Source of the DNA: an uncultured Rhodospirillaceae bacterium
Lineage (GTDB): Bacteria > Pseudomonadota > Alphaproteobacteria > MPNO01 > UBA830
Assembly: GCA_963974055.1 (NCBI GenBank)
Contig: CAXBCP010000023.1
Location: 11,666-75,665 of the forward strand
Length of the DNA stretch: 64,000 bases
Direction of reading: 5' to 3'
Positions 3,910-24,899 of the stretch are shown piece by piece (positions within the stretch are counted from its first letter, which is position 1; every line of letters starts with the position of its first letter). The notes beneath the pieces are model-generated. The model was given only the letters and a program-made list of their open reading frames with translations, made no database searches and was not told the origin of the DNA. Position numbers and translations under genes: made by a program.

Positions 3910-4005
3910 CCCTTCTTGAACACGTATAGAACCAATTGTCTCGCGCCGGAGGCTGAATTTCGCAGGCTCATTCAAGAAATTTCTAATCTCGACGCGGCGG
4001 CATAG
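3904..4005 (+). other. Displaced C-terminal coding segment of the island recombinase (WLPFLNTYRTNCLAPEAEFRRLIQEISNLDAAA*)
   Basis: Open frame starting at the att core TGG CTG, the same two codons the recombinase reads in frame at 24826-24831; has no start codon of its own. Confidence 0.7.
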
Positions 4006-7880: not shown

Positions 7881-8270
7881 AAACGAGGTTGGGGGCAGCC
7901 AAGGCTCTGGGAGGCGTTACGACAGGGTCGAGGGGATGGCGACCTCTTCGGCCGGAGATCGAGCCTGAACTCAACACAGAAATGCGGGGATGGGGCGATA
8001 CTGCCCGGAAAGGTCTTCCAATTAACAAGCCTCATCTCGATCGGTGTCAGGGGCAATACCACTGGATCGTGAGAGTTTCTGGGTATCTGTAACAAAAAAG
8101 TGGCCCAGATTTAGGGAGGAAGTACCCATTTCCGACTTGAATCGCCGTCTCCGGATCCAGATGCAGCACCCAGCCCTGCGCCTCGTTTTGGTCATTGTTT
8201 AGTAATCGCTATACGATTCGGGGTTGTTAAGTGTAAAGTGCTTTCTAAACAAAAACTGGAGTGAGGGACC

Positions 8271-8678: not shown

Positions 8679-9446
8679 ATGTCGATTAAGGTCAGGTATC
8701 TCTCCAAGGACGAGATCGAACTGGAGGCGGAGCTGCTGCTCGCGCAATACGCGGAGACGATCGGTGGCCCCGTGAAGCTGCCTGTCCCGGTCGACGAAAT
8801 AACAAAATATCATCTTGCGCTCCAATTAGAATTTGCCGATCTCCACGATGTTCTCGATGTTCCCAGGCAGCGCAATACGCCCGATATTCTGGGGGCAATT
8901 TGGGTCGATAAGGAAGTTATCCTGATCGACGAAATGCTCGATCCGAATGGTTACCCCTCCATGGCGGGACGCTACCGTTTCAGCGTGGCGCACGAAATCG
9001 GTCACTGGTGCCTTCACCGGGACTATGTTTCAAAGGATACCAGACAAGCTGCACTGTTCGACGCCCCGTCAGAACCGACGGTAATCTGCCGCTCCGGACT
9101 AACGAGAGAGCCGATTGAATGGCAGGCGGATAAATATGCATCCTGTTTGCTGATGCCGCGTCTCAAAGTGCGGGAGATGTGGCAAGAGCGTTTCAACAGC
9201 AAGCGCCCCTTGCTGCTTTCGTCCCTGAAACCGAATGTCGATGTGATGATGCGCGCGCACAATTTGATGTGCGGGCAGGGCAAATCTGAGGTCGCCGCTG
9301 TCAATGATGCACTTTTCGAGGAGGTCTCGAAACCGATTGCCCGACGCTTCGGCGTTTCGCCGTCGGCAATGCGGATACGGTTGGAAGAACTCGGTTTATT
9401 GCTGCGCGAGGCGCCAAAGCAGTCCGCATTAACGGATAGTTTTTGA
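8679..9446 (+). CDS. ImmA/IrrE family metallopeptidase
   Basis: RYRFSVAHEIGHW (HExxH) and EWQADKYASCLLMP motifs; adjacent to the XRE gene. Confidence 0.9.
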   Translation: MSIKVRYLSKDEIELEAELLLAQYAETIGGPVKLPVPVDEITKYHLALQLEFADLHDVLDVPRQRNTPDILGAIWVDKEVILIDEMLDPNGYPSMAGRYRFSVAHEIGHWCLHRDYVSKDTRQAALFDAPSEPTVICRSGLTREPIEWQADKYASCLLMPRLKVREMWQERFNSKRPLLLSSLKPNVDVMMRAHNLMCGQGKSEVAAVNDALFEEVSKPIARRFGVSPSAMRIRLEELGLLLREAPKQSALTDSF

Positions 9447-9470
9447 CTCTTTTTTTGGAAGGATTGTTAA

Positions 9471-9737
9471 GTGTCAACTGAACGATACGCGCAAGCATCA
9501 CCTCAGGCATGTGTCGCGTTTGAGACGTCAGATTTCTATCTGGCCTGTTTCTTGCGCTGTTCAGGATATGCGTTGCTTGATCTCCGGCCAGCAGGTCGTC
9601 GAAAGATATTTGTGTTTAAGGATAGCCCCGAGCGCCCGACCGATGTGCTGTCCTTCTACGGCGACAACACAACCGTCCCGCCGCTCGCATTCTCTTCCAC
9701 CATCAAAGACATGAAGGCGCTGTTATACAATGGATAA
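9471..9737 (+). CDS. Small hypothetical protein (DUF5659-like)
   Basis: TSDFYLACFLRCSGY pattern recalled from mobile-element proteins; GTG start. Confidence 0.6.
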   Translation: MSTERYAQASPQACVAFETSDFYLACFLRCSGYALLDLRPAGRRKIFVFKDSPERPTDVLSFYGDNTTVPPLAFSSTIKDMKALLYNG

Positions 9738-21930: not shown

Positions 21931-23151
21931 ATGAGTGTGACGGCAAGCTTCCTTCACGGGTATCCTCAGACGAAGATCGCTACGATGATTTGCGACCGTC
22001 TGGCACGCTGCGGCGAAGCGCAGATCGTGTCGGGTTTTGCGACACCTGATGGAATTGAGGCGCTACGCGCCAGATCGTACTCGAATAAGATCACCCGTTT
22101 CGTGCTCGGCGCAGGTACTTTCAAGGCCTTCGAAGCATTGGATGACCTGTTAACTTCTGGACTACCGCCCAATGCGGCACGGGTTCATCTCGGGCATACA
22201 CGTGCAACCGGAGGCAGGAAAAACCCGTTTGCACGATTGCGACCCATGCTTCACAGCAAGGTCTATTACTTCGAAATGCCCGACGGAAAGGCAGCGGCCT
22301 TTGTCGGCTCTCATAACCTGACCGGATTCGCCATGCGCGGGTTGAACGGCGAGGCTGCGGTCCTTCTTGAGGGTGAAACTTCAGACACTGTCTTCGACGA
22401 GATTCGAGCGCATGTCGCGGAGAGTTATCGACAAGCCGTTGCCTATGATACATCGCTCAAGGAAGCGTATGCGCTCTGGTTCCGTGAATATCTTGAAGGG
22501 TTGCGCATTGAGACGTCCGATATGCCGCGGGACGATGAAAGCCGGCGTACGGTAATCCTATTTGCGAAGGCGCCTGCGGGACGAATTCCCTCGGAAGGGG
22601 ATCGGGTTTATTTCGAACTCGATCTGCGGATCACCGACGTCAAAGCCATCGACACAGAAGTGCATTTGCATCTTTTTGAAACGATGCCGGCTAACCCGGC
22701 AGAAGCGCTCTCGCGCTCCAGTCAATCTGACACCGCCCTTTTGGGCAAGGTGGAAGCAATTGATTCCGCCGCGGGCTCTGCCGAGGTCAGGGCGGATTGG
22801 TTTATTGATGACCCTTCGAATCCTGAATTGAAGCCAGCGGTGGCGCCATTTCGGCCGATTTTATCGCCCGGCAAACAACAGGTGCGTGCGGAGATCTCGG
22901 AGGACCTTATGACACGATTTGACTATCTATTCGATTCAGGAAGAGGGAAATGGGTCCCAACTTTGGGTAATGAGACGGTCGTCGAAGAGGGTACAGATCT
23001 GGTTTGGTCCCGAGTGGAGGGGCTTCGTGAACAAGAAAGCGGGGAGGTAGGGCAACAAATGATGTTGGCCGACCTTCGGGAGATATCGCCAGAGTCGGGC
23101 TCCTTTGTTCTCTTCTCACGCAGGCGCCGAAAGCTTGGCACGCGCGAATGA
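21931..23151 (+). CDS. Phospholipase D-superfamily (HKD) nuclease-like protein, NgoFVII/BfiI-like N-terminus
   Basis: MLHSKVYYFE...FVGSHNLT...NGE is a single HxK/GSxN PLD nuclease motif; C-terminal half unrecognised. Confidence 0.7.
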   Translation: MSVTASFLHGYPQTKIATMICDRLARCGEAQIVSGFATPDGIEALRARSYSNKITRFVLGAGTFKAFEALDDLLTSGLPPNAARVHLGHTRATGGRKNPFARLRPMLHSKVYYFEMPDGKAAAFVGSHNLTGFAMRGLNGEAAVLLEGETSDTVFDEIRAHVAESYRQAVAYDTSLKEAYALWFREYLEGLRIETSDMPRDDESRRTVILFAKAPAGRIPSEGDRVYFELDLRITDVKAIDTEVHLHLFETMPANPAEALSRSSQSDTALLGKVEAIDSAAGSAEVRADWFIDDPSNPELKPAVAPFRPILSPGKQQVRAEISEDLMTRFDYLFDSGRGKWVPTLGNETVVEEGTDLVWSRVEGLREQESGEVGQQMMLADLREISPESGSFVLFSRRRRKLGTRE

Positions 23152-23224
23152 GACTGAAAACTAACTGAAGCATGCTCCAGGCGCGGGGATAGCCTCTGAG
23201 AAGCTTGAGCGATAAGTATTCAGG

Positions 23225-23276
23225 GTTGTGCTGGGCATATTGTTTAGTATATACTAAACAATATGCCCAGCACAAC
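23225..23276. repeat. Perfect 52-bp palindrome covering the recombinase promoter and start codon
   Basis: GTTGTGCTGGGCATATTGTTTAGTAT|ATACTAAACAATATGCCCAGCACAAC, 26-bp arms, no spacer. Confidence 0.95.
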
Positions 23277-24858
23277 AAACAAATCCAAAAGCGAGGCCGC
23301 CGGCGATGTCAGCCGGGCGGTGCTCTATGCCCGCGTCTCCTCCAAAGAACAAGAGAAGGAAGGCTTCTCGATCCCGGCACAGCTTAAGCTGCTGAAGGAG
23401 TACGCCGCGCGCGAAGGGTTGTCCGTCGTTCAAGAGTTCGTTGACGTGGAAACGGCCAAGCAGACGGGCCGCACCAACTTCTCTGAGATGATCGCATTTC
23501 TGCGTGCCAATCCCGGGGTTCGGATCATTCTGGTCGAGAAGACCGACCGCCTTTACCGAAACCTTAAGGACTGGGTGATGCTCGACGAGATTGACGTCGA
23601 AATCCATCTCGTCAAGGAAGGCGTGGTCTTGTCGCGTGACTCGAGGTCGTCGGAGAAGTTCATGCATGGCATCAAGGTTTTGATGGCCAAGAACTACATC
23701 GACAACCTGTCCGAGGAAGCGCGTAAAGGTATGCAGGAGAAGGCCGAGCAGGGCATCTGGCCGACCAAAGCGCCGCTCGGCTATCGCAATATCACGGGGC
23801 CGGACGGAAAGAAGATCATCGACGTCAATCCCGAGGTCGCCCCGATCGTTGGAAAGCTGTTCGAATGGTATGCCGCTGGAAGTTATTCGCTGAAGGAGCT
23901 TGGCAGAAAGGCGGCAGCGGAGGGTTTCCGCTATCCGCGGTCCGGCGCCCGTGTTCCGAACAGCACGATCCACACGATCCTGCGGAACCGGCTCTATACC
24001 GGCCAGTTCGAATGGAACGGCAAGTTGATCGTGGGTAAGCACGAACCGCTGGTTTCGGCTGAGCTTTGGCAGCGCGTTCAGGACGTGCTCGACGGTCGGA
24101 ACGCCAAAAAGCACCGGCGTATGAAACATGATTTCGCTTTTTCGGGGCTTATCGGCTGTGCGAAATGTGGCTGCTCGGTCGTCGGTGAGATCAAGAAGCA
24201 GAAATACATCTACTATCACTGTACCGGCTACGCCGATAAGTGCCGGGAGGATCCCGCCGCCTGCCGCAGGAAGTATGTTCGCGAGGAAGCGTTGGAGGCC
24301 CAGTTCTCGGAACTGCTTGGCAAGCTGTGTTTCGACGACGAAGTGCTGGAATGGGTGCGGGAGGCACTGCATGCTAGCAAAGCTGACGAACAGCGGGAAC
24401 ATGGTGAAGCAATTAGGCGGTTGAGGACTGAGTATGACCGCCTGCAGCACCGCATCGATGTGATGTATATCGATAAGTTGGACGGAAAAATCGGCGGCGA
24501 GTTCTTCGACCGGATGGCCGGAGATTGGCGGGAGGAACAGTCTCGTTGCCTGAAAGACATCGAACGCCACCAGGAAGCACAGCAGTCTTACATGGACGAG
24601 GGAGTGAAGATTCTCGAACTCGCGCAGAACGCTCAAACGCTGTTCGAACGCCAGCCCGCTCGAGAAAAGCGGCGATTACTGAACTTCGTACTTTCGAACT
24701 GCTCGTGGGACGATGGCGAATTGATCGCCGAATTCCGGCAACCCTTTGATTTATTGGCGAAAACCACTGCCACTTCCTCCCAAAAACGGGCAGAAAACGG
24801 CGGGAGTGTGATAAAAAAAGAGATTTGGCTGGGGAACCTGGATTCGAACCAGGACTAA
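23263..24858 (+). CDS. Large serine recombinase (integrase)
   Basis: VLYARVSSKEQ catalytic Ser motif, VEKTDRLYRN, recombinase domain, CAKCG...YYHC zinc ribbon, coiled coil; last codons run antisense into the tRNA. Confidence 0.95.
   Translation: MPSTTNKSKSEAAGDVSRAVLYARVSSKEQEKEGFSIPAQLKLLKEYAAREGLSVVQEFVDVETAKQTGRTNFSEMIAFLRANPGVRIILVEKTDRLYRNLKDWVMLDEIDVEIHLVKEGVVLSRDSRSSEKFMHGIKVLMAKNYIDNLSEEARKGMQEKAEQGIWPTKAPLGYRNITGPDGKKIIDVNPEVAPIVGKLFEWYAAGSYSLKELGRKAAAEGFRYPRSGARVPNSTIHTILRNRLYTGQFEWNGKLIVGKHEPLVSAELWQRVQDVLDGRNAKKHRRMKHDFAFSGLIGCAKCGCSVVGEIKKQKYIYYHCTGYADKCREDPAACRRKYVREEALEAQFSELLGKLCFDDEVLEWVREALHASKADEQREHGEAIRRLRTEYDRLQHRIDVMYIDKLDGKIGGEFFDRMAGDWREEQSRCLKDIERHQEAQQSYMDEGVKILELAQNAQTLFERQPAREKRRLLNFVLSNCSWDDGELIAEFRQPFDLLAKTTATSSQKRAENGGSVIKKEIWLGNLDSNQD
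24825..24831 (+). repeat. Right attachment core TTGGCTG
   Basis: Overlaps the tRNA-Gln 3' CCA and recombinase codons W522/L523. Confidence 0.75.
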
Positions 24859-24899
24859 GCGGGTCAGAGCCACTCGTTCTACCGTTAAACTATTCCCCA
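24826..24899 (-). tRNA. tRNA-Gln (anticodon CTG)
   Basis: Reverse complement TGGGGAATAGTTTAACGGTAGAACGAGTGGCTCTGACCCGCTTAGTCCTGGTTCGAATCCAGGTTCCCCAGCCA folds as a cloverleaf with a GTTCGAATC T-loop and encoded CCA. Confidence 0.95.

Follow-up and report, generated by a model that had tools for sequence, protein, structure and literature searches.

The lambda cI gene, when read from PRM, is a leaderless regulatory gene: its -10 element lies about 7 nt from the ATG, a Shine-Dalgarno (SD) sequence is absent and an operator lies over the promoter. For mobile elements, the ImmR/ImmA control of ICEBs1 in Bacillus subtilis and the related phage-like immunity modules have been reviewed (PMC5812530), and an inverted repeat in the SCCmec ccrAB promoter is reported to be protein-bound and to hold down both expression and excision (Zhang et al., 2015, via PMC10226514). 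Promoters with symmetric elements are known to fire both ways (Warman et al., bioRxiv 10.1101/2020.01.31.928960), with one polymerase orientation excluding the other at such bidirectional promoters (PMC12825309). Quasipalindrome template-switch mutation is an established mechanism (PMC7202029), and template switching creates hairpins (PMC8794818). The locus analyzed here is compared with each of these: a perfect 52-bp palindrome at the 5' end of a large serine recombinase (LSR) gene, in a 64,000-nt stretch of DNA (the window, meaning the whole stretch at its full length) from an uncultured Rhodospirillaceae bacterium (GenBank assembly GCA_963974055.1, contig CAXBCP010000023.1, positions 11,666 to 75,665).

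We propose that this palindrome is probably a private, perfectly symmetrised form of an operator-promoter that is conserved among related recombinase genes (coordinates in Table 1). Its two arms are 100% complementary and read GTTGTGCTGGGCATATTGTTTAGTAT followed directly by ATACTAAACAATATGCCCAGCACAAC. The 26-mer of one arm has no second copy in the window when up to 3 mismatches are allowed (0 expected), nor is there a second copy in the 4.9-Mb genome, and a genome-wide scan for perfect palindromes returned the 52-bp palindrome as the longest by a wide margin. The runners-up have 18-nt arms, and the other long perfect palindromes of the genome are mostly G+C-rich and terminator-hairpin-like. 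A preliminary description of this DNA, made from the letters alone, had reported a palindrome without spacer or mismatch and with unusually long arms, which it read as a leaderless promoter for a recombinase (TTGTGC-N18-TATACT-N7-ATG, no ribosome-binding site visible). The arm comparison within the window agrees, the arms are indeed exceptional within their own genome (26 nt, vs. 18 nt for the next best), the promoter string is present exactly as given and the gene to the right is an LSR by its Pfam domains. The leaderless promoter is also strongly backed by geometry conserved in 53 homologous LSR loci, but the description overlooked, at the palindrome centre, a conserved dyad, most likely a repressor operator, shared with the promoter of an Xre/ImmA module.

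Other assignments for the palindrome were tried and set aside. A repetitive extragenic palindromic (REP) element or other dispersed palindromic repeat is ruled out by its single copy in the genome. Nor is it an intrinsic terminator: its centre is rich in A+T, AAACAAATCC comes after the right arm and the terminator scanner made no call. A search against known RNA families in Rfam matched generic miRNA-hairpin models alone, far under thresholds. Apart from it, the genome has a single long perfect palindrome without a spacer (TATGCTCAGTATTATGCGCATAATACTGAGCATA, 17-nt arms, G000:C52:7976-8009), which resembles an operator rather than a terminator.

The promoter was compared with those of homologous genes. 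The comparison set comprised 80 homologous LSR loci (63-77% protein identity, mostly Alphaproteobacteria), of which 53 align upstream without gaps and are the 53 relatives referred to hereafter. Their consensus is gcTTGCAA-N17-TACACT-AAACnnn-ATG, with a -35 of TTGCAA or TTGCGA. The TTG stands at the consensus place in 40 of the 53 loci and within ±2 nt of it in 50, while a -10 of the form TAnnnT is found in 46 (TACACT at the same position in 37, TATACT in 4) and the ATG keeps a fixed distance from the -10 in 50. Only 1/53 loci has an SD-like tetramer. More distant LSR homologues, in the Mesorhizobium and Hyphococcus groups, have ordinary GGAG-type SD leaders instead. Because the -10 ends 7 nt earlier, transcription in the window is predicted to start with the A of the ATG or right beside it. 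Expression of the LSR from its own sigma70-type leaderless promoter is thus supported by conserved geometry. Unlike lambda cI, the leaderless gene here is a recombinase and not a repressor. A stock promoter scanner is silent on TTGTGC-N18-TATACT because TTGTGC fits TTGACA at 3/6 positions only, and a full-text literature search found no paper on a leaderless serine-integrase promoter.

By information content, the best-conserved block of the 53 LSR promoters is not the hexamers but the dyad TGTTTAG-N6-CTAAACA, which overlaps the promoter spacer, the -10 and the start point and whose GTTTAG/CTAAAC core pairs at 6/6 positions in 34/53 loci. The palindrome that contains it is internal to an integrative island of ~21 kb, at the 5' end of the integrase gene, because island junctions flank it on both sides: a TTGGCTG core is common to the junctions at about 3.9 kb and about 24.8 kb. 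The 3' end of the LSR gene runs into tRNA-Gln, and G+C content is lower from about 3 kb to 25 kb. A search of the window for the dyad (≤3 mismatches) gave 4 matches against 0.44 expected, all inside the island, and the three beyond the LSR promoter (8196-8215, 8232-8251 and 9465-9484) lie ahead of an Xre-type repressor gene and between the ImmA/IrrE-like metalloprotease gene and a DUF5659/replication operon. The half-site TTGTTWAGTRT has 5 copies in the 4.9-Mb genome, 4 of them in promoter regions of the island.

The same arrangement was found in homologous islands. A weight matrix made from the LSR-promoter dyads alone was run over 12 homologous islands of 5-17 kb, and its best non-LSR match falls ≤130 nt upstream of xre in 9/12, vs. 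~1% expected by position. The third-best match is often also within 130 nt upstream of xre, and more matches lie just past immA, at about 2,210-2,275 of other islands. A single Xre homologue (44-58% identity) is encoded 3-16 kb upstream of the LSR gene, on the same strand, in 11/12 of these islands, as part of a recurring backbone xre-immA-DUF5659-orf73...LSR in which immA follows xre in 10/11 and DUF5659 and orf73 come next in 7. At Pxre, the xre promoter, site 1 overlaps the -35 (TGTTTAG-N6-GTTGAC) and site 2 overlaps the -10/+1 (TGTAAAGT-N5-CTAAACA); since the position of the motif relative to the hexamers varies there, it behaves as an operator and not as a promoter element. The PDB sequence neighbors of the Xre protein are ClgR and an immunity repressor. 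Because the motif recurs at the xre promoter and at the next operon, here and in most of the homologous islands examined, the dyad is probably an Xre operator, and its most likely role is that of the operator of the island's own repressor, as in ImmR/ImmA control.

The proposed scheme is as follows. The LSR promoter (-35 TTGnnn, spacer of 17-18 nt, -10 TAnACT), placed 7 nt before the ATG, would yield a leaderless mRNA, and the 20-bp dyad would be the operator for the island Xre repressor, partnered with the ImmA/IrrE-type protease. Xre would repress the replication operon as well as the promoters of its own gene and of the integrase, and the protease would relieve this repression. The recombinase would in this way be held off until the repressor is inactivated, like under ImmR/ImmA in ICEBs1. 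Three points weigh against the operator assignment. In 19/53 loci the left half of the dyad has changed with no compensating change, a clear Pxre site is absent from two of the islands (L109 and L112), and the assignment is based on the co-occurrence of motif and genes and not on binding.

The predicted control is a regulatory unit of a known kind, closest to ImmR/ImmA control and the ccrAB repeat. As in ICEBs1, the gene for an Xre-type repressor comes before one for a metalloprotease anti-repressor, and the repressor is predicted to bind at its own, the recombination and the replication promoters, where derepression would trigger excision. Unlike ICEBs1, whose tyrosine int belongs to the immR operon and where Pxis is the point of control, the island uses an LSR that has a leaderless promoter to itself, at the far island end. 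Its host is an alphaproteobacterium, and its ImmR/ImmA-type control is predicted from genes and motifs. The likeness to SCCmec ccrAB lies in a conserved inverted repeat upstream of an LSR gene. The SCCmec repeat, however, is reported to stand 55 bp ahead of a gene with a leader and to be a target of the host factor SarS, whereas the island dyad lies across the -10 and the start point of a leaderless gene and its predicted binder is encoded by the element.

Several smaller observations touch on the dyad. An exact 11-mer, TTGTTAAGTGT, occurs at 8224 and 9464, ahead of xre and of the DUF5659/replication operon, and at Pxre of the window island CTATAC stands where the -35 GTTGAC is usually found. 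In one relative (L049:2960-3010, G066:C6:1353432-1353451) the dyad is doubly changed to GTTGAG...CTCAAC with its pairing kept. This change is not usable as covariation because that genome is without an Xre homologue and no second altered site lies near the recombinase; the other near-matches in the same genome belong to a dispersed repeat, TGTAGAGAGAAGACTCAACT, with >15 copies.

Beyond the core dyad, the symmetry is private to the lineage of the window. Of the 17 outer arm positions, all 17 pair in the window and 4.5±1.7 in the 53 relatives, which is about random, with a highest value of 9/17 (L006). The core arms of the relatives are mostly 6-9 nt, and the longest perfect run, again in L006, is 11 nt. 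The preliminary description had suggested a look at homologous islands for the same symmetry, and none of the 53 relatives is symmetric beyond the core dyad. As their outer arms are complementary only at a random level, the 52-bp palindrome is not needed by the family, and as no relative conserves the long arms, these are not a designed family feature.

The long arms are most likely the product of one intrastrand fold-back, that is, a quasipalindrome template-switch event, to judge from the comparison with relatives, in which a short inverted repeat that could nucleate it is present at the same place. The right arm AATATGCCCAGCACAAC is typical under the family profile, its CTAAACAATATG is common to several relatives and the CTAAAC-N3-ATG spacing is kept. 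The left arm is in the bottom tenth under the same profile, with its TTG 1 nt further out and a spacer of 18 nt where the family has 17 nt. Because the right arm is family-typical and the left arm scores poorly with its 18-nt spacer, the left arm is taken as the copy: the first 14 coding nt and the AAT ahead of them were probably copied, inverted, over what had been the -35 region. The fold-back would have been nucleated on the dyad, in this lineage alone, and the copied arm would have left a TTG one nucleotide from the family position, by luck or selection. The closest 5' relative is L049/L092, with ~94% identity in the 124 nt that follow the palindrome. Compared with L049, the window differs at 11/17 left-arm positions, 7/17 right-arm positions and 7/124 of the positions that follow, so that changes cluster in both arms.

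Known quasipalindrome mutations turn a short imperfect repeat into one that is longer and perfect at a single stroke, as proposed here, and in those cases the changes cluster in one arm (Ripley, 1982; Dutra and Lovett, 2006; PMC7202029; PMC8794818). Unlike those cases, the island event is inferred from relatives ≤77% identical overall and not from an ancestor-descendant pair. Laboratory quasipalindrome reporters record changes of a few bases, and the converted tract here, ~14-17 nt with a 1-nt length change, appears longer.

Some of the evidence weighs against this history. In the coding part of the right arm 6/11 positions differ from L049, compared with 50/386 in the rest of the aligned coding sequence (Fisher p=0.0016), and the right arm could therefore be the overwritten one; LSR codons 2-4, however, are hypervariable among other near relatives too. 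A sister promoter without the extension was not found, the next full-length relatives being ≤77% identical. Five 95%-identical relatives from JGI metagenomes (L087-L091; 87-93% nucleotide identity) have only the 3' third of the LSR left. Homologous DNA was found in none of 60 relatives' genomes, and the 27-mer that directly follows the palindrome had no exact match among the metagenome and viral contigs scanned. A protein search with the LSR N-terminal region returned L049/L092 (92%), L094 and L095, all with ordinary short dyads. The five truncated loci are decayed island remnants at the same site, in which the last 188-213 LSR codons are fused to unrelated DNA and abut tRNA-Gln (e.g., L087:1797-2449).

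Because the perfect palindrome spans -38 to +14, an identical operator, -35, -10 and ATG stand on the minus strand. The predicted leftward start, at 23238, is 25 bp from the rightward start, and the 25-codon open reading frame (ORF) at 23238-23161 translates to MPSTTLNTYRSSFSEAIPAPGACFS, just as the preliminary description stated. Such a mirror ORF is impossible in the relatives because the outer arms are private to the lineage of the window. As in known bidirectional promoters, elements of opposite strands coincide, and the predicted start spacing is at the edge of the 7-25 bp class. Known bidirectional promoters, in contrast, are pseudo-symmetric around the -10 only and their starts are most often 18 bp apart, whereas the palindrome mirrors all of -38 to +14, start codon included, with starts that are predicted. 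Two RNA polymerase orientations on the palindrome would compete and be mutually exclusive. For terminator-like hairpins, of which one faces leftward transcripts, the scanner reported 2 against 0.7 expected. A single-strand hairpin promoter of the Frpo-like kind is ruled out on geometry, as one and the same stem would have to supply both the -35 duplex and the duplex over +1 to +14. The peptide LNTYR occurs both in the mirror ORF (23200-23224, minus strand) and in the tail that the recombinase would have in its excised form at attL (3914-3928); this sharing is a coincidence, because DNA similarity is absent (score 17 vs. 15.8±2.1 for shuffles).

Four other explanations of the palindrome deserve consideration. 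The genome is a 96-contig draft from metagenomic data, and chimeric fold-back reads can yield perfect palindromes, so an assembly or fold-back sequencing artefact has to be weighed. The flanks, however, are different and ordinary genes on either side, and the LSR start codon and a family-standard promoter lie inside the palindrome. Moreover, the same 52 bp with the same asymmetric flanks recur in two further metagenome assemblies, drawn from other samples (L086 and L096). In one of these (ENA ERZ3422065 NODE_2971) the palindrome is intact within a variant that differs by 13 single-nucleotide polymorphisms (SNPs) over 7,885 bp and by one amino acid of the recombinase, and the other is an identical Tara scaffold (L096). 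Because both agree with the window on the palindrome and on its flanks, an assembly artefact is very unlikely, and a fold-back sequencing artefact hardly credible. The palindrome might otherwise be an enzyme site, such as an att-like or autoregulatory site of the recombinase, a protelomerase target, or an oriT or replication hairpin. A dyad of ~50 bp next to a recombinase gene resembles serine-integrase attP and telomere-resolution sites, and the island encodes a RepB-type primase, yet the core dyad recurs at Pxre, as a transcription-factor site would, and relatives with the same enzymes are all without the long arms. For an att site in particular, the arms match the tRNA-Gln (24.8 kb) and ~3.9 kb junctions at 12-13/26 positions, which is shuffle level, and the central dinucleotide TA is palindromic and would abolish recombination polarity. 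A protelomerase target is ruled out, PF16684 (ResT/TelK-type enzyme) having no match in the genome. We consider it highly improbable that the palindrome is an enzyme site.

In the remaining two explanations the long arms are kept for a purpose. The whole palindrome could be a selected device, either a cruciform topology switch or a bidirectional promoter with a functional leftward RNA or 25-aa peptide, for example in antisense control of the PLD and restriction-modification (R-M) genes. The arms are perfect and their centre TTTAGTATATACTAAA reaches 87% A+T, against about 62% G+C for the genome; each DNA strand of the palindrome folds at -28.2 kcal/mol (z = -10.5), and cruciform extrusion is physically plausible, while cruciform or topology sensing is speculative. 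In addition, symmetry makes the mirror promoter and its ATG exact copies, leftward transcripts would meet a weak terminator-like hairpin, and the population variant with 13 SNPs elsewhere has the palindrome unaltered. On the other hand, 0/53 relatives are symmetric beyond the core, so that evolution gives no sign of selection. Overall, the leftward RNA is no more structured than shuffles (z = 0.03), and the mini-ORF is without a homologue by construction. As the promoter is internal to the island, it has the same sequence in the circle and in the chromosome, and the two forms differ in supercoiling alone. A selected device is unlikely on this balance, and a still bolder reading, in which a template switch mirrored the whole leaderless unit and so gave rise to a translatable 25-codon gene, divergent and co-regulated (palindromic de novo gene birth), together with a supercoil-dependent cruciform switch of the integrase, is quite doubtful. 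Alternatively, the arms may be kept for a role in RNA. In read-through RNA from the upstream R-M/PLD operon a 24-bp stem would form over the LSR AUG (-64.4 kcal/mol, z = -7.1), and a plus-strand terminator was not found between the PLD stop and the palindrome; a hairpin on hsdR-PLD read-through would bury the AUG, might draw RNase III and would insulate the integrase. Nonetheless, an internal AUG without an SD is already translated poorly, the leaderless family design suffices without long arms, and relatives of the same gene order lack them, which makes retention for this purpose improbable. Because none of them is conserved, the mirror promoter and ORF, the polymerase competition and the read-through hairpin are treated here as by-products of the symmetrised operator-promoter, probably near-neutral and not a selected device.

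By itself the palindrome reveals no new mechanism, and its mutational extension is unusual but mechanistically familiar. It nevertheless draws attention to an apparently undescribed, broad alphaproteobacterial family of islands, with the layout xre-immA-DUF5659, variable defence cargo and a serine recombinase at tRNA-Gln, and to the likely regulatory logic of that family, a repressor operator on a leaderless integrase promoter, for which concrete sites can be named. The 52-bp extension would be a natural example of template switching that rewrites a promoter and mirrors a whole leaderless start signal. This could be of use in the study of bidirectional promoters, of the tolerance of cells for perfect palindromes and of the rise of new small ORFs.

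Table 1. Features of the palindrome, its promoter elements and the surrounding island, in window coordinates.
Feature	Position	Strand	Remarks
Xre, two operator-like sites ahead of the gene	8195..8251	+	TTGTTTAGTAATCGCTATACG and TTGTTAAGTGTAAAGTGCTTTCTAAACA
Xre-type helix-turn-helix (HTH) repressor gene, 118 aa	8271..8627	+	Candidate dyad binder; Pfam HTH_31/HTH_3
ImmA/IrrE-like metalloprotease gene	8679..9446	+	Presumed anti-repressor; Pfam Peptidase_M78
Operator-like site TTGTTAAGTGTCAACTGAACG	9464..9484	+	Between immA and DUF5659/replication operon; motif match
PLD-family nuclease gene	21931..23151	+	Co-directional with hsdR; predicted leftward transcript is antisense to its 3' end
Mirror leaderless 25-codon ORF, MPSTTLNTYRSSFSEAIPAPGACFS	23161..23238	-	Translation; first 14 nt identical to LSR start
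Weak terminator-like hairpin and T-run	23165..23180	-	For leftward transcripts; between palindrome and PLD stop
Perfect palindrome	23225..23276	none	Arms 23225-23250 and 23251-23276, 26 nt each; spacer 0
-35-like hexamer TTGTGC, rightward promoter	23226..23231	+	Inside private left outer arm; 18-nt spacer
Core dyad TGTTTAG-N6-CTAAACA	23241..23260	none	Predicted Xre/ImmR-like operator; about -22 to -3 of LSR promoter
Mirror -10 TATACT, predicted	23246..23251	-	From perfect symmetry
-10 hexamer TATACT	23250..23255	+	7 nt ahead of ATG (23263)
LSR gene, 531 aa	23263..24858	+	Pfam Resolvase + Recombinase + Zn_ribbon_recom
Mirror -35 TTGTGC, predicted	23270..23275	-	From perfect symmetry; within LSR codons 3-5
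tRNA-Gln(CTG)	24826..24899	-	Integration target at LSR 3' end (attR); same junction in L040, L087

Upstream of the LSR gene, on the same strand, the island carries a type I R-M system, the PLD-family nuclease gene, a RepB-type primase gene and other cargo. At its other side, the Tara scaffold L096 ends at window position 24879, inside the tRNA-Gln gene and 21 nt past the recombinase stop; this end may stem from a junction that differs within the population, with the island present, absent or excised, or from a plain repeat break. In ~20 homologous loci a protein of 267-274 aa without a Pfam match is encoded directly upstream of the LSR (e.g., L092:643-1446 and L017:2147-2971). It is 72-90% identical in most of these loci and is better conserved than the LSR, and an HNH_2 gene precedes its gene in L092 and L094, the two loci whose gene calls were inspected. 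This neighbor is ruled out as the dyad binder, its gene being absent from the genome of the window while the dyad is kept. Lastly, xre lies ~3-3.5 kb upstream of the LSR gene in two loci (L105, G068:C2:123600-128700; L106, G065:C1:2159600-2164300), which would be minimal, almost cargo-free xre-immA-recombinase elements and may offer a compact test system.

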